From Candidatus Margulisiibacteriota bacterium (GTDB lineage: Bacteria; Margulisbacteria; WOR-1; O2-12-FULL-45-9): a DNA stretch of 21,676 bases. Position numbers and translations under genes: made by a program. The notes below the pieces were generated by a model. That model was not told the origin of the DNA, ran no database searches, and worked only from the letters and a program-made list of their open reading frames with translations. Where the stretch lies: the NCBI GenBank assembly GCA_034723395.1, contig JAYEOW010000005.1, positions 1 through 21,676 on the forward strand, read 5' to 3'. Shown here in pieces: positions 13,933 through 19,793 of the stretch. Every line of letters begins with the position of its first letter. Position 1 is the stretch's first letter.

Positions 13933-15033
13933 CTAAAAGTTGTGCCGCATCTTAACAAAGACGATCTTACTTCCGATAAATCCGCTTGAGTCATCTTGGT
14001 CAGTCGGCATATATTCAGACCCCGATTCCCCTCCATAAAAGAGCGCTTCCAGGCTGACGTCCACGTCCTGCCACATATTATATGAAAAAGAGGGATAGAC
14101 CAAGTGGCTCATGTCGTCCGCATTCATCAGGATTGATAGGTTTATTGTCGTAAGCTCATCCAGCGCTTTTTGGAAGCCGAGATAAAAATAATCCATCCCC
14201 AGCTGCTGAATATCTCCCGCCAAATAACTAGCCCAGTCATAATCTGCTTTTTTCTTCTTTCCCAAGCCGTTGAAAAAGTACTCTGAATTGATATACCAGC
14301 CGTTTTCAAAAGTGTAATCCACTCCAAAAACAAATTTAAAATATCGATTAGTTTCGGCAGAACTTACCAGCGCAATCTCTTTTCTTATCCCCAAATCGAA
14401 TAGTTCCCCCGCCCCGTCGATCCCAAACTGAAAACCAGCATCGCCTTGATCGACATAATTCGCCGAAACATCATAATCATCGATATTAGTTTTATATCTT
14501 ATCGCCTTTGTTGTACTTTTCCATTCCTTACCTGCAATTGCAAAAGCATCGATGTGCGAAGCCTCCCCTAACGGGATCTCAAATCTTGCTGCGATCTCAT
14601 CCTCTTCGTCCTCTTCGGAAACCGCAAAAGAGAGGGTGAAAGGATTTAAAACATCAGTCGGATTCCAGATATAGCCGGTCCCCCATGCAATACGTTGTTT
14701 TCCGAGGGTAATATCAACTTGGGGGTAATATAACTTTACGTACGCGCGGTCCCAATTTAGCTGATCTATGCCGGAAACATCGCTAATTAAAGGGAGCGGT
14801 CCGGACTTGACCAATGTATCGTACTCAGGCTCAAAATGGAACAGAATATTTTCACGCGGCTGCGCATCGATCTTTAAACGAAGTTTATTCAGGTCCCCAA
14901 CCATCCCGCCGCCGGTTCGCTTAACTATCCCAACCAGGTTGTTTTCGTAATAACCGCCGACCTCAACCGCTGTCGCGGTAATGACAAATGCCAAATTAAA
15001 AATGACAAATGCTAGTAAAATCTTTTTTATCAT
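13933..15033 (-). CDS. Putative outer-membrane beta-barrel protein
   Basis: Signal peptide; RAYV...DITLGKQRIAWG...WNPTDVLNP porin-like motif; alternating beta strands; C-terminal Phe; last gene of the ABC/LolA-like operon. Confidence 0.75.
   Translation of the reverse strand: MIKKILLAFVIFNLAFVITATAVEVGGYYENNLVGIVKRTGGGMVGDLNKLRLKIDAQPRENILFHFEPEYDTLVKSGPLPLISDVSGIDQLNWDRAYVKLYYPQVDITLGKQRIAWGTGYIWNPTDVLNPFTLSFAVSEEDEEDEIAARFEIPLGEASHIDAFAIAGKEWKSTTKAIRYKTNIDDYDVSANYVDQGDAGFQFGIDGAGELFDLGIRKEIALVSSAETNRYFKFVFGVDYTFENGWYINSEYFFNGLGKKKKADYDWASYLAGDIQQLGMDYFYLGFQKALDELTTINLSILMNADDMSHLVYPSFSYNMWQDVDVSLEALFYGGESGSEYMPTDQDDSSGFIGSKIVFVKMRHNF
14980..15014. repeat. Five tandem heptamers AATGACA AATGCCA AATTAAA AATGACA AATGCTA inside a signal-peptide coding region
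   Basis: Read directly; the reverse strand encodes LAFVIFNLAFVI. Confidence 0.75.
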
Positions 15034-15785
15034 TTCAGGAATATTATACTTCTATACTTGTATAGTAGCCATTGCAAATATCGTTTCCGCTTCCAAAACC
15101 CACTCAACAGTATCTGGTATTTCTTCTGAAGCTCGCCCAAAACTAACCGTCTCTGATCATTATTTAATTTTTCAGCGGATAACTTCCCCAAAGCCTTGAT
15201 CCGAAAACGGTCCATCCCCCAATATTTCTTCGAAAGCTGGTCGGGATGCCCGCCCCTTTTAGTGATCAATTTCTCGTCAAGGAAAGCTATGGGATGGATT
15301 AAAGACAATCGCAGCCAGAGATCATAATCCTCGCAAACCGGCAAGGATTCATCAAATCCGCCCAGACTATTAAACAGTTCTTTGGTCATTAAGATCGAAG
15401 AGGCGCTGATAATACAAAGCGGGAGACACTCATCAAAAATCCAACCGTGAAATTTCCGATGCTTTTTCATTTGGTTAAGATGCTTGCCGTTACGGATCCA
15501 CTTCTCATCCGTATAGCAAGCCTTAAACCTTCGGTTCTTTTTTAAATATTCGATCTGTCTTTTCAGTTTCTTCTTATCCCACAAATCATCAGAATCGAGA
15601 AAAGCGAGATATTTACCATTTGCTTTTTCCGCTCCGCGATTACGCGCCCATGCCGCCCCTCTCCCCATCACGTCATCAATAATGATCAGTTCAAAATCCC
15701 TATAAGTTTGAGCCTTGACCGAGGCAATCGCCTCTCGAGTAAATTTTGGACGGTTATGCGTTGGAATAATTACAGAGACAAGCAT
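15030..15785 (-). CDS. Glycosyltransferase family 2 (GT-A)
   Basis: VSVIIPTHNR, ELIIIDD, ARNxG, AFLDSDD, GGFDE, EDYDLWLR. Confidence 0.93.
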   Translation of the reverse strand: MLVSVIIPTHNRPKFTREAIASVKAQTYRDFELIIIDDVMGRGAAWARNRGAEKANGKYLAFLDSDDLWDKKKLKRQIEYLKKNRRFKACYTDEKWIRNGKHLNQMKKHRKFHGWIFDECLPLCIISASSILMTKELFNSLGGFDESLPVCEDYDLWLRLSLIHPIAFLDEKLITKRGGHPDQLSKKYWGMDRFRIKALGKLSAEKLNNDQRRLVLGELQKKYQILLSGFWKRKRYLQWLLYKYRSIIFLK

Positions 15786-15788
15786 TGA

Positions 15789-16664
15789 TTACTTCTTAAG
15801 ATTTCTTTGGGTAAAGATCCCGGCCGGCAATCGAACATCAAATTGTGCTTTTGTAACAAACATCTCAGTCAATGAATCTTTGCGCAGCATATTTTTCATC
15901 GTCACATATAAAGGATAATAACGTTTGCCAAATCTTTTAATATCAGATAGAGTCGTGACCTTTAATTTCTTCCCCGACTTTGCAAACAGCTCTTCTTTTA
16001 CCGGCACAAAGGTCTTTTTGTTTACCCAAATCTTTCTCCGATAATAAGTTACATCTTTTACTTTTGCGGTTAGGTCCAAAACATAACATGGGTAATTAAC
16101 TGTTGTTATTTTCTTCCCTTTACGAACTTTAACCGGGATTGTCTCTTGGTCAACCAATTTAATACTGTATTTTTCACGCAGCTTGTTGCTTTCCAGCGCG
16201 TCTTCGTAGCTAAAATCAGACCCCATCATCGATTGCCGCAGCATATGCCCGGAGATCTTAATGATCTTTTCAACCGACGGCAGATACATCCACATATTGT
16301 CATCGATCTTTAAATATTTAACGCCCTTATCCCGAGCTGGATAGGTGAATTCCGCGAACGATCTATCTCTCCCCTGCGCCCAGCTGACCAGCTTCTTGGT
16401 GCGGACCTGTTTGCGGACATGAATGATCATCGTGGTTTCAAAACGACCCGTACCATAAGTCATATTCGCATCAACTTTATCTATTATTTGTGCGCCAGTT
16501 AGAGCAACTGCATTCGTGCTAAGTAACAAGAGACAAGATACAAGATACAAATAAATCCCAAATCTCAATATCCAATCACCAATAAAATAATGTTTGGTTA
16601 TTGATTTTTGATTATTGATTATTATTTGGTTATTGTATCTTGTATCTTGGTTATTAGATTTCAC
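15789..16664 (-). CDS. Outer-membrane lipoprotein-sorting (LolA-like) protein
   Basis: FTYPARDKGVKYL, MWMYLPS, SMMGSDFSYED, terminal FTQRNL motifs. Start placed at GTG 16664 (GGAGG 6 nt upstream, overlapping the permease end), giving 291 aa. Confidence 0.88.
   Translation of the reverse strand: MKSNNQDTRYNNQIIINNQKSITKHYFIGDWILRFGIYLYLVSCLLLLSTNAVALTGAQIIDKVDANMTYGTGRFETTMIIHVRKQVRTKKLVSWAQGRDRSFAEFTYPARDKGVKYLKIDDNMWMYLPSVEKIIKISGHMLRQSMMGSDFSYEDALESNKLREKYSIKLVDQETIPVKVRKGKKITTVNYPCYVLDLTAKVKDVTYYRRKIWVNKKTFVPVKEELFAKSGKKLKVTTLSDIKRFGKRYYPLYVTMKNMLRKDSLTEMFVTKAQFDVRLPAGIFTQRNLKK
16521..16655. repeat. 135-nt imperfect palindrome built from AAnnnnC heptamers
   Basis: Arms 16521-16580 and 16596-16655 are each 4 heptamers + AAAT + 4 heptamers (60 nt) in inverted orientation around a 15-nt spacer. 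Confidence 0.9.
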
Positions 16665-17877
16665 GCAATGCCTCCGTCGGTTCCATTTTTGATGCTCGCA
16701 GTGCAGGTGGGATCGCAGCCACAACTGAGAACACTACCCCCATGCAGAATCCAAAAAGGATAATGGTCCAGCGAAAGACCGCCCGATAAACATAACCGAG
16801 CGGCATATTAAATTCTCCCATCTGCTCAAATAGATGGGTAAAATCGATCCCTTCGGTTGCCAGATAATAAGCAATCCCCGACCCAAGCAGCATGCCGATA
16901 AAACTGGCAAATACTCCGATCAACATTGCTTCGATCAAAATTACCCCCATCACCTGCCGGTCCTTCATCCCCAGCGCCTTCATCATCCCGATCTCTTTGG
17001 TCCGCTCGAGCACCGACATAAACATCGTGTTTAAGATCGTAAAACTGGCCAGGAAAAGAATAATAAAATAAATTACTCCATACATATTTTTTGCCAGATT
17101 CATATAAAAGAACATAATCCCCTGGTCCTGCCACGGGACCGCGGCATAATCGCTCCCCAACTTTGTCTCGAGCTCTCTAGCGACCAGAGGAGCGTGTTTT
17201 GGATCTTTGACCAAAACAAAAATCTCGGTAGCGGCTCCCTCCAAATCTAGAAGCTCTTGTGCTTTATCGAGCGGGAGGAAGAAGATCGTTCCATCAAAGC
17301 TCGGAACACTAAAACTAAAAATCCCGACGATCTTTAGGTTCATCGCCGCGATCGATCCATAAGCGGTTTGGGTAACGATCGTTAAGGTGTCGCCTAATTT
17401 TAAGCCGAGTTCCCGGGCCAACTTATCTCCGATGTTGATCTCTTCCCTACCAAGAACGATTGCGCGGCCTTTAACGATCTGTTTCGATAGAGAAAATACT
17501 TTCTCAGCCTTGGCTGGTTCAATCCCCATCCCCATCGTCGGTTTATTATTCCCTTCATTATCCAAAAGAACGCCGAATTTAATGCGTGGAGAAGTTAAAG
17601 TAACCGCCGGATTGGATTCAACGATCTTTTGCACTTCAGGATAATTGGGAATATTTGATTCGAGCGGCATCATTTTTTCTCTTTTAACATATTCAGAATT
17701 CAGCACTCGTACATGCCCGCTGGTTAGACGGATAAAATTATCAAATAATCCATCCACCACTCCGCTGATCAGCGACCAGAGATAGATCGCCACCATTACC
17801 GCGACCATGATCGACATCCCGGTCAGTGCGGTCCGCCGCTTGTTCCGTAATATATTTCTTAAAGCTATTTTAAACAT
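16654..17877 (-). CDS. ABC transporter permease, LolC/E-MacB/FtsX family
   Basis: IALRNILRNKRRT, large periplasmic domain, NTMFMSVLERTKEIGMMKALG, PAxRASKMEPxEAL. Confidence 0.93.
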   Translation of the reverse strand: MFKIALRNILRNKRRTALTGMSIMVAVMVAIYLWSLISGVVDGLFDNFIRLTSGHVRVLNSEYVKREKMMPLESNIPNYPEVQKIVESNPAVTLTSPRIKFGVLLDNEGNNKPTMGMGIEPAKAEKVFSLSKQIVKGRAIVLGREEINIGDKLARELGLKLGDTLTIVTQTAYGSIAAMNLKIVGIFSFSVPSFDGTIFFLPLDKAQELLDLEGAATEIFVLVKDPKHAPLVARELETKLGSDYAAVPWQDQGIMFFYMNLAKNMYGVIYFIILFLASFTILNTMFMSVLERTKEIGMMKALGMKDRQVMGVILIEAMLIGVFASFIGMLLGSGIAYYLATEGIDFTHLFEQMGEFNMPLGYVYRAVFRWTIILFGFCMGVVFSVVAAIPPALRASKMEPTEALREI

Positions 17878-19104
17878 TTATGCTTTCTTTAGCGCCTCGG
17901 TCGGTTCCATTTTTGAGGCTACCCATGCCGGATAAACGCTAACGATCGCCGAAACGACGACGCCAAAAATTAGTGCGATTAAAAACATATGCAGCCGCCA
18001 AACCCCATAACTTGCACCGGTAATTCGATAACCGATATCACCCATGTCGCGCATCATAAATCCCCAGTTAATGCCAAATCTTACCAAGGGGTAATTCATC
18101 GCTGCGCCTAAAAGACAGCCAAAGATACTGCCAAAGAGTCCGATCAGTGCCCCTTCATAAATAAATAACCTTCTAATTTGCTTTCGTCGCATCCCCATCG
18201 CCGCCATCATCCCGATCTCCCTTACCCGCTCATAAGCGGACAACAATATGGTATTGCTGATCCCGATCAACGCGATGATAACCACTGCCGAAAAGATAAG
18301 TGACGAAAATCCCCGTTTTGTCTCGGATATGGCGATCACATCTTCCGCCAGATCTTTCCAGGTCATGATCTCAAGGCCGGTAAGCTCTTTGGCTAATTTA
18401 TCTCTAAATTTATCCACCTGTGAAATATCCTTTAATTTAATGTCGATCTCAGTGACTGCTTTCCCCATATCGAGTGAATCCTGTCCTACTCCTAAAGGAA
18501 TAACGATCGCCGCCCAATCGATCTTCGGATCCTCGGTCTTTAATATCCCCTTGATCCGGAGATCGAGCGCCTGATAGGTCTCATATTTTGTCCTGGTTAA
18601 TACAGTCAGGTAGTCACCAACTCCAACATTAAAGTCTTCGGCCAGTCCTTCCCCGATCAACATCGCCTCTTCGCCCTTATTAATAAATTTCCCCTCTTCC
18701 ACCGCCTGTTTTAGTTTAAAAACATTTGTGTCATCTTCTGGATTAATTGCAATTCCGATCGCAGGGAACTGGTCGATCCCGTCCGAAAGAAATATCCTAA
18801 AGTTGATCCGGGAGGTAATTCCTTCAACATTTTTGTCGCGGGACACTTCATCGATAATCTTGGCTGGCATATCAATTGACTTGTCTAGCGGCAGGTTTTT
18901 AACGTCTTCTTGATAGCCCCGCTGAAAGATCTTAATATGCCCGGTCTCATAATTGATTACCTTGGTAAATGAATCCACGTCGAGCCCGGTAAGCATCGAA
19001 TCCATCAGCAGCAGTACGCCTAGCCCGAAGGCGATCGCAAACATGGTTAGCAACGTCCGCCTAAAATTCCTGAATATATTCCTAAAAGCCAGCTTAAAAA
19101 GCAT
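17878..19104 (-). CDS. ABC transporter permease, LolC/E-MacB/FtsX family
   Basis: LAFRNIFRNFRRT, NTILLSAYERVREIGMMAAMG, YPAxxASKMEPTEAL; paralogue of the adjacent gene. Confidence 0.93.
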   Translation of the reverse strand: MLFKLAFRNIFRNFRRTLLTMFAIAFGLGVLLLMDSMLTGLDVDSFTKVINYETGHIKIFQRGYQEDVKNLPLDKSIDMPAKIIDEVSRDKNVEGITSRINFRIFLSDGIDQFPAIGIAINPEDDTNVFKLKQAVEEGKFINKGEEAMLIGEGLAEDFNVGVGDYLTVLTRTKYETYQALDLRIKGILKTEDPKIDWAAIVIPLGVGQDSLDMGKAVTEIDIKLKDISQVDKFRDKLAKELTGLEIMTWKDLAEDVIAISETKRGFSSLIFSAVVIIALIGISNTILLSAYERVREIGMMAAMGMRRKQIRRLFIYEGALIGLFGSIFGCLLGAAMNYPLVRFGINWGFMMRDMGDIGYRITGASYGVWRLHMFLIALIFGVVVSAIVSVYPAWVASKMEPTEALKKA

Positions 19105-19106
19105 TT

Positions 19107-19793
19107 CTACCTTTTTTCGTCAGATTGGATCTTCCCGTCATGCACGTGGATCAATCGATTTGCATAATCCATTACCATTTGGTCGTGGGTTGAGAAAATA
19201 AAAGTCGTTTTGGTCCGCTGGTTCATTTCTTTCATCAGCTTCAGGATCCCCTCGCCGGTAACTGAATCTAAATTAGCCGTCGGTTCATCAGCCAGAACGA
19301 TCTTTGGGTCCTTGACCAATGCGCGCGCGATCGCTACCCGCTGCATCTGCCCGCCGCTCATTTCGTTTGGCTTACGTTTAGCCAGATCTCCGATCCCGAC
19401 ATCTTCGAGTATCTTCATAACTTTTTCCTTCCGCTCTTTAGCGTTCCCCTGCTTTAAGAGGATCAGCGGGAATTCAACGTTTTCGAATGCGGAAAGGACC
19501 GGGATCAGGTTAAAGGTTTGAAAGATAAAGCCGAGATTGTGGTTGCGCACATCGGCCAGCTGGTTTGATGATAATCTTCCAACATTCCGATCGCTGATAA
19601 AGACCGTTCCCCCGGTCGGTTGATCAAGACAGCCAAACAAGTTCAACATCGTCGTCTTTCCTGACCCCGACGGACCAGCAATTGAGGAAAATTCCCCCTC
19701 TTCGATCGATACGGTCACCCCACGCAGGGCTGGAACTTCGACTTTTCCTACTCTATAATTTTTTACCACATTGGTCATATTTGCTACAGGCAT
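19107..19793 (-). CDS. ABC transporter ATP-binding protein, LolD/MacB-like
   Basis: Walker A GPSGSGKTT, GFIFQ, signature MSGGQ, Walker B/D-loop LADEPTANLD, H-loop STHD; AGGAGG RBS. Confidence 0.96.
   Translation of the reverse strand: MPVANMTNVVKNYRVGKVEVPALRGVTVSIEEGEFSSIAGPSGSGKTTMLNLFGCLDQPTGGTVFISDRNVGRLSSNQLADVRNHNLGFIFQTFNLIPVLSAFENVEFPLILLKQGNAKERKEKVMKILEDVGIGDLAKRKPNEMSGGQMQRVAIARALVKDPKIVLADEPTANLDSVTGEGILKLMKEMNQRTKTTFIFSTHDQMVMDYANRLIHVHDGKIQSDEKR

Follow-up and report, generated by a model that had tools for sequence, protein, structure and literature searches.

A palindromic heptamer array lies in frame at the 5′ end of a LolA-like gene

How does a long palindrome built of 7-nt units come to lie in frame at the start of a gene, and what does it contribute to the protein? 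The question is raised by a LolA_like gene (PF17131; 15789..16664, − strand) of a Candidatus Margulisiibacteriota bacterium. The window, that is the whole 21,676-nt stretch analysed here, is the entire contig C5 of a metagenome-assembled genome (MAG), G000 (1.68 Mb, 55 contigs, 45% G+C, 97% complete), and window coordinates are C5 coordinates; other genomes, contigs and retrieved loci are written below as G, C and L numbers. Codons 4–48 of the gene are formed by a palindromic heptamer-array element of 135 nt (16521..16655, −). Judging from sequence comparison, this element is probably an in-frame copy of a dispersed heptamer palindrome that has replaced the ordinary signal peptide of the LolA-like gene.

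The element comprises 60 + 15 + 60 nt: four units, an AAAT spacer and four further units, then 15 nt, then the mirror image, with 16 AAnnnnC units altogether. A regular-expression scan returned four runs of four AANNNNC units (16521–16548 and 16553–16580 on the + strand, 16596–16623 and 16628–16655 on the − strand), and an inverted-repeat search gave 64-nt arms at 16519–16582 and 16594–16657, 72% complementary, of which the inner 17-nt pair is perfect. This matches exactly the mirrored architecture described in the original prediction, and the reading frame is likewise as described there: the element starts on a codon boundary and corresponds to codons 4–48 counted from GTG 16664. In the coding-strand sense, the A-rich arm (16596..16655, −; eight AAnnnnC units plus the AAAT spacer) encodes the polar stretch NNQDTRYNNQIIINNQKSIT and is followed by the 15-nt central loop (16581..16595, −) and by the T-rich arm (16521..16580, −), encoding GDWILRFGIYLYLVSCLLLL. 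Runs of at least four AAnnnnC units number 24 in G000, compared to 0, 1, 0, 1 and 0 in five first-order Markov genomes.

The corresponding RNA is strongly structured. The − strand transcript of 16500–16680 folds at −55.4 kcal/mol, compared to −29.6 ± 3.5 kcal/mol for 200 dinucleotide shuffles (z −7.35; 0/200 as good), in line with the long mRNA hairpin anticipated at the permease/LolA-like junction. The hairpin of the element alone amounts to −40 kcal/mol and starts 9 nt after the start codon. The Rfam match obtained here, to a plant miRNA-precursor model, was rejected (25.6 bits against a gathering score of 211); it says only that the region is a long AU-rich hairpin. Scanning 16300–16900 for promoters and terminators gave no promoter-like site and a single terminator-like site, inside the permease gene and off the element.

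The element and the predicted signal peptide

The LolA_like domain match is full-length (profile 1–184 of 184, 2.9e-54, 184 bits against a cut-off of 30); no NCBIfam model matched the protein. Its GTG start codon (16662..16664, −) lies in an 11-nt overlap with the 3′ end of an FtsX/MacB_PCD permease gene (16654..17877, −; LolC/E-like, below the NCBIfam cut-off), whose stop codon TAA (16656–16654) abuts the element. A Shine–Dalgarno-like GGAGG (16671..16675, −), recognized by reading the sequence, lies 6 nt ahead of the GTG, still within the final codons of the permease gene.

Read from this codon, residues 1–34 form an n-region with 5 K+R and 2 D+E, to which the A-rich arm contributes a long polar tract of N, Q, K, T, I, D and R. 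The last positive charge, R34, is encoded by the T-rich arm and directly precedes the hydrophobic run. The candidate h-region is the 14-residue core FGIYLYLVSCLLLL, within the Sec-type range of about 7–15 residues. The best 11-residue Kyte–Doolittle mean in the first 80 residues is 2.44 (IYLYLVSCLLL, residue 37) and drops to 1.30 when the element is deleted in silico, which agrees with the earlier proposal that the T-rich arm carries the only hydrophobic core. The c-region STNAVA (16503..16520, −) lies outside the element. Signal peptidase I is predicted to cut after A54, where A-V-A places small residues at −3/−1, and the predicted mature protein begins LTGAQII (16502 downwards); this position is aligned in 10 orthologues (VLA/ITGE, SFA/ITGE and others).

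The heptamers themselves are suited to this role. Since (G....TT)n in any frame gives mainly F, L, I, V, W, G and C, a T-rich arm is a ready-made hydrophobic core. With a lag-7 identity of 0.63, that of the LolA-like gene ranks third among 486 N-terminal hydrophobic segments. That the T-rich arm encodes a functional hydrophobic core is highly probable, a view that holds for either of the two start codons considered below.

Orthologues carry plain signal peptides, palindromes or GC-rich hairpins at the same place

Ten LolA-like orthologues from relatives, 52–69% identical by tblastn (59–70% in a second comparison), all align at the mature start [ILV]TG.[EQ]II. Where the upstream permease is kept, the orthologue starts with ATG or GTG in the same 11-nt overlap, behind GGAGG. 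What lies between these two conserved landmarks differs: a plain signal peptide of 19–20 residues in five, a heptamer palindrome in three, including one (G005) with the AAGATAC/GGTTATT units of G000, and GC-rich hairpins in two. Eleven further public records give the same picture, with plain signal peptides and three T-array cases. Taken together, most orthologues carry a plain signal peptide, 19–22 residues long. Orthologous sites free of the element do exist, at a protein identity (52–69%) too diverged to define the insertion point.

The GC-rich hairpins in the signal-peptide region of two of these orthologues (G003 and G011; L019, L020) are akin to GGAACC...GGTTCC. Similar GC-rich GGAACC...GGTTCC hairpins surround the single Y1_Tnp frame of G000 (C19:37834–38058), a truncated frame of 81 aa that is not associated with the heptamer palindromes. 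Within C19:37400–38100 this IS200/RAYT-like frame ends in a stop, and the remainder continues in another frame.

The element belongs to a dispersed family

A second full-length copy in G000 (C46:350–485) fills the spacer between a tRNA-Cys and a tRNA-Val gene. It has the architecture of the LolA copy and a central loop of identical sequence; the two copies are 92.9% identical over 70 nt (A-rich arm and loop) and 86% over 117 nt. A half copy (C3:26155–26221) follows the stop codon of a HIT-family gene. G004 carries a full copy at the corresponding place behind its HIT gene (L147, G004:C54, 588–724; G000 region C3:26131–26221), which suggests an old orthologous non-coding insertion that has lost one arm in G000.

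Of 40 relatives searched at the DNA level, 26 gave matches, and seven genomes of the same class (G003, G004, G008, G017, G031, G032 and G039) yielded 17 full-length copies. Alignment of these with the two full-length G000 copies (alignment A2, 19 rows) revealed a common unit register, an AAAT/AAAC spacer with its mirror and a consensus of the outer T-rich arm, with a variable loop length. They therefore constitute a sequence-conserved family and more than a local run of 7-mers, and the original prediction was right in seeing a copy of a dispersed element. The family is found throughout this class of Candidatus Margulisiibacteriota. Applied to the 19 copies, RNAalifold retained only 15 pairs, mostly invariant. 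One pair covaries (spacer AAAT/ATTT versus AAAC/GTTT), with both sides changed in five sequences and the pair broken in five. We make no claim of selection on RNA structure, because register shifts between 7-nt units spoil the alignment for a full covariation test.

Period 7 is also the commonest tandem-repeat period in G000 (53 arrays at a score of at least 40, against about 10 each for periods 6, 8 and 9). Counting forward and reverse together, four-unit runs number 26 in G000 and range from 4 to 64 in the 30 further genomes that belong to families f1 and f2. Elsewhere in the class the range is wider, with none in some genomes, and the other classes of the phylum mostly have 0–2, a few genomes such as G103 and G111 being exceptions. 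Heptamer arrays are a trait of this class.

Coding copies share a sense of reading and an open frame

To separate coding from non-coding copies we used a criterion of our own, an open reading frame (ORF) running through the T-rich arm. In 11 cases out of 19 the copy occupies the 5′ end of an ORF that continues beyond it for a further 185 to 367 codons; the edge of the fetched stretch cuts five of these ORFs short. All are read in a common sense, M..QDTRYK..polar..WILRFGICLCLVSW..AxA, with hydrophobic runs resembling W-I-L-R-F-G-I-C-L-C-L-V-S-W. Two of them are FlgH and FlgA of G004, the residues after the cut being aligned with the Pfam-typed FlgH and FlgA of G000.

At least one frame is open through the entire element in each of the 11 coding copies (18/66 frames), whereas 1/48 frames is open in the non-coding copies, seven of the eight being stopped in all six. 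Openness of the A-rich arm is an independent observation, because the criterion requires an ORF through the T-rich arm only, although the two are not wholly unrelated. In the LolA copy the single open frame of six is that of the gene, while the non-coding copies at C46 and C53:7122–7257 have none. Read from the alignment, the unit AAAAATC of the LolA copy stands where the C46 copy has AATAATC, and this difference removes an in-frame TAA. Of the ten coding copies outside G000, nine have their first start codon ahead of the element, at a distance of 9 to 44 nt, and one has it 8 nt inside. The proposed co-option of the element as an export signal thus gains comparative support, from the orthologues, the sole open frame and the same role in other exported proteins, and co-option appears probable on these sequence grounds.

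Start codon, route of arrival and competing explanations

In the reading that we prefer, ribosomes finishing the permease would re-initiate at the overlapping, translationally coupled GTG 16664 and read three native codons before the element. The A-rich arm would give a long polar n-region of net positive charge, the T-rich arm R34 and the hydrophobic core, and the native STNAVA the cleavage site, with export by Sec and a cut after AVA. That the entire element is translated from the GTG is likely, if less so than the coding of the core by the T-rich arm. The element would have arrived when a resident T-rich array recombined, or underwent gene conversion, with a palindromic copy at another place. 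We favour this over a local template switch because A-rich arm and loop are 93% identical to the C46 copy, while the T-rich arm is much more diverged. We infer, then, translation of the A-rich arm, export, cleavage and the route of arrival.

Several points weigh against this reading. A strong hairpin starting 9 nt past the start codon is expected to hinder initiation. Three public records (L040, L041 and L051) have a signal peptide made of a T-rich array alone, which is compatible with either order of events: a palindrome may have been inserted and its A-rich arm then lost, or the T-array may have come first and the A-rich arm been added. No target-site duplication was seen by eye at the C5 or the C46 copy. 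A search for Y1_Tnp linked no transposase to the family, and we infer its mobility solely from the unrelated flanks of its copies. Residues 1–58, searched at the protein level against targets of 160–510 residues, gave three candidates, none significant, and the encoded peptide is therefore not conserved enough for that protein-level tool. The coding/non-coding split of the 19 copies depends on our criterion, and signal peptides were assessed throughout by eye and hydropathy. Finally, a textbook signal peptide of 22 residues, as long as the plain ones of the orthologues, can be read without the A-rich arm.

This last point is the basis of the strongest competing explanation, which we regard as unlikely. 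Translation would start at the in-frame TTG of codon 33 (16566..16568, −), inside the T-rich arm, and yield the signal peptide M-R-FGIYLYLVSCLLLL; the A-rich arm together with the loop would then remain untranslated, as a hairpin between the cistrons that controls LolA-like expression relative to the permease, with the T-rich arm still coding for the core. By sequence reading, R and then the hydrophobic run come after the TTG, which has GGTGA 8–12 nt upstream, but both TTG and GGTGA sit within the paired arm. The strength of the hairpin and the T-arm-only signal peptides of L040, L041 and L051 would suit such an arrangement. It would not account for the conservation of GTG/ATG and GGAGG at the 11-nt overlap in permease-keeping orthologues, for an A-rich arm open only in the frame of the gene when nearly all non-coding copies are stopped in all six, for the deviant unit AAAAATC that removes the in-frame TAA, or for the first start codon lying upstream of the element in nine of ten coding copies elsewhere. 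This frame evidence appears to weigh against the TTG start, and under either start the hydrophobic core would be encoded by the element.

It is considerably less probable that no copy of an element arrived at all. Local 7-nt slippage in a T-rich signal-peptide region, of the type of STRR, the heptanucleotide tandem repeats of heterocystous cyanobacteria, could be combined with a local template switch, and the resemblance to other palindromes would be convergence. The prevalence of period 7 in G000, the many unit types and the T-arm-only signal peptides of orthologues are all compatible with this scenario. Against it, the A-rich arm and the non-periodic loop are 93% identical to the C46 copy over 70 nt, yet the A-rich arm is only 72% complementary to its own T-rich arm, the opposite of what a local template switch predicts. 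Moreover, the 17 copies in other genomes have spacer positions and a consensus in common.

That the stretch is an assembly artefact, or the gene a dead one with an N-terminus of no consequence, is extremely improbable, even though misassembly is common at palindromes and repeats and G000 is a MAG of 55 contigs: an independent Logan contig of 21,482 nt (run X1, possibly the source sample) shows no difference across 16200–17000, a 192-nt contig from an unrelated sediment run (X3, depth 2.6) covers the junction of T-rich arm and mature part (16459–16648) with nine differences in 190 nt, so that the 135 nt are no assembly accident, and the LolA_like domain is complete, stop-free and conserved among orthologues to the extent given above. 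Runs X2 and X3 contain only small parts of the stretch, and their comparison at 85% identity returned mostly short contigs that match the element alone and have unrelated flanks; these were not used for habitat or copy number.

Heptamer arrays encode other N-termini

G000 has 104 arrays of period 7 or 14 (Tandem Repeats Finder score of at least 34). Considering ORFs that are 100 aa or longer, 31 of the arrays fall within the first 60 codons, 40 lie deeper, 3 are C-terminal and 30 are outside such ORFs. By eye, the N-termini of 17 G000 genes were read as signal peptides encoded wholly or partly by arrays, among them those of FlgI, FlgH, FlgA, an SLH protein, an LptD_N-like protein and a 366-aa protein of the window. 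FlgI must be exported to work, and in G000 the sole hydrophobic N-terminal stretch of this protein (PF02119, 1.6e-111) is array-coded. The 16 FlgI loci compared, among them that of G000, agree in the mature start but not in the N-terminus; over the 150 nt that precede the mature part, seven of them have a lag-7 score of 23/35 or more.

As a control for T-richness we compared N-terminal with internal hydrophobic segments. A lag-7 identity of at least 0.55 was reached by 9/486 of the former and 0/789 of the latter; membrane helices, which are as T-rich, are thus not built from heptamers. Signal-peptide regions may be where such elements survive in genes, because any frame of (G....TT)n is hydrophobic and signal peptides tolerate wide variation.

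In FlgI and FlgH, a small GC hairpin encodes the S-A-Q-A cleavage region. Hairpins of this kind adjoin arrays elsewhere too. One GC hairpin of 13 nt, closed by a TTCG loop, occurs in identical form beside the tmRNA gene and beside a tRNA-Ala(TGC) gene (C50:29147–29191, C53:231–275), with a heptamer array after it in both places, and small GC hairpins whose loops are GCAA or TGC lie next to further arrays.

Arrays read in the A-rich sense (C11:17303–17328, C4:89899–89937 and C29:73932–73956) encode short polar N-terminal tails on ORFs that have no signal peptide; ScpA of G000, which starts MTNDKCQI, is an example. The ATG inside an AATGAC-type unit means that arrays can donate start codons.

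Similar arrays flank four-helix-bundle genes

The original prediction had stated that 7-mer arrays flank TIGR02436 four-helix-bundle genes, and this is true of G000 and G017. G000 has 11 PF05635 matches, and the two of these proteins that were scanned are TIGR02436 (120 and 87 bits against a cut-off of 24). Examined by eye, at least 7 of the 11 genes have 7-mer arrays in both flanks, and the arrays are inverted around C15:4695–5021, C15:8488–8814, C53:22476–22793, C29:134313–134594 and C3:3051–3362. The gene-less element of FlgH (AAATCCA subfamily) has arm/loop boundaries, ...CAAACAAGG / CATTGTTGGGATTTT..., that by eye are common to both C15 cassettes. For the subfamily of the window we found only direct, non-inverted arrays of the GGTTATT type, on both sides of a four-helix gene of G017; no gene-bearing inverted form of this subfamily was found, and the window element carries no gene. 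An emptied four-helix cassette would be a reasonable origin for the LolA copy, but for this subfamily it is only suggestive.

No reverse transcriptase (RVT_1) match is present in G000, at its completeness of 97%, and an origin of the kind of diversity-generating retroelements, tied to Avd-like four-helix proteins, therefore has no support here.

Three four-helix genes of G000 (C46:29808–30122, C15:2361–2675 and C3:3051–3362) lie, by reading, directly downstream of a sequence like a tRNA 3′ end. They are preceded by an AT-rich hairpin and by inverted arrays whose 7-mers are of another type (GAATGAG-like), and each has a TGGTATAAT-like −10 box ahead of its start.

These observations lead us to a broader and more tentative proposal, which taken as a whole we hold to be possible rather than probable: the element may be a portable signal-peptide cassette within one class of Margulisbacteria. 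It has four parts. By landing behind a start codon, or by bringing its own ATG in an AATGAC-type unit, the element would provide through its single open frame a complete extended Sec signal. Ancestral signal peptides would have been overwritten repeatedly, in the LolA-like protein, FlgA, FlgH, FlgI, the LptD_N-like protein and the SLH protein. The element would be the gene-less form of the TIGR02436 four-helix cassettes. The mRNA hairpin may couple translation of the exported protein to the upstream cistron.

Relation to known repeats

That selfish palindromic repeats can be exapted as coding sequence is established. Comparable in description are the Rickettsia palindromic elements (RPE), which Ogata et al. 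are said to have described in 2000: reportedly palindromes of about 100–150 nt, inserted in frame in genes and translated as a tolerated segment. They are reported to lie inside proteins and are not known to have heptamer periodicity or to play a role in export; the likeness is one of description. The STRR resemblance lies in tandem 7-nt units in many dispersed arrays. Margulisbacteria are the sister group of Cyanobacteria. REP/REPIN elements, which are associated with RAYT (Y1) transposases, are short hairpin-forming dispersed repeats that have no gene of their own. The family described here resembles them as dispersed hairpin repeats, and has the inverted arms and the several related copies with unrelated flanks typical of REPINs and of miniature inverted-repeat transposable elements (MITEs), but the sole Y1_Tnp match of G000 is truncated and lies amid unrelated GC-rich hairpins. 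Heptamer arrays of the same general kind flank the TIGR02436/PF05635 cassettes of G000 and G017, from which the window element differs in being gene-less.

In Yersinia, the palindromic MITE RU-2/YAPL is fused to YPO1552, a single hypothetical protein in which the 168-bp element is predicted to form part of the signal peptide (Delihas 2007, PMC2759123; Delihas 2008, PMC2229807). That element has no 7-nt periodicity, whereas the heptamer element would supply the whole n- and h-regions; and in contrast to the single Yersinia case it recurs in LolA_like, FlgH and FlgI of G000, in FlgH and FlgA of G004 (by alignment) and in several genomes, each time in the one open frame. The TAACTGA heptamer repeats of Beggiatoaceae are mostly intergenic and at the periphery of ORFs when coding (MacGregor 2015, PMC4679880). 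What appears to set our family apart from these and from STRR is the fixed palindrome of 4 + spacer + 4, loop and mirror, the consensus across genomes and the coding of signal peptides.

Literature searches, whose coverage left aside most subscription journals, returned no paper on signal peptides encoded by heptamer repeats. What appears to be new is the heptamer architecture, the fixed frame, the complete extended signal peptides and the recurrence in core envelope genes across a bacterial class. Beyond the earlier cases, one repeat family would supply export signals to essential envelope and flagellar proteins repeatedly, across genomes and in a fixed frame. If confirmed, this would make signal peptides a preferred evolutionary sink for repeat DNA, show concretely how proteins can acquire or exchange export signals and assign one coding use to heptamer repeats that have long lacked an explanation in the Cyanobacteria/Margulisbacteria lineage. 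For annotation, it matters that downstream starts may be picked, or long N-termini missed, by gene callers in such genomes.

Neighbouring genes and further arrays

All genes around the element are on the − strand. The LolA-like gene belongs to a tightly packed operon (13933–19793, −) in which neighbouring gene ends abut or overlap, and which encodes an ABC ATPase, two FtsX/MacB_PCD permeases (LolC/E-like, below the NCBIfam cut-off), the LolA_like protein, a family-2 glycosyltransferase and the 366-aa exported protein. This last gene (13933–15033, −), next but one downstream of LolA_like and beyond the glycosyltransferase, has no Pfam or NCBIfam match. Its signal-peptide core LLAFVIFNLAFVI is encoded by a T-rich array of the ATTTGTC type (14980–15011) that has no A-rich partner.

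In-frame arrays are also found deep in long ORFs, one of 4624 aa (C43:20593–20623, C45:1328–1363, C19:37005–37036, C48:42068–42099 and C48:42542–42570), where they would give protein segments with a periodicity of seven residues.

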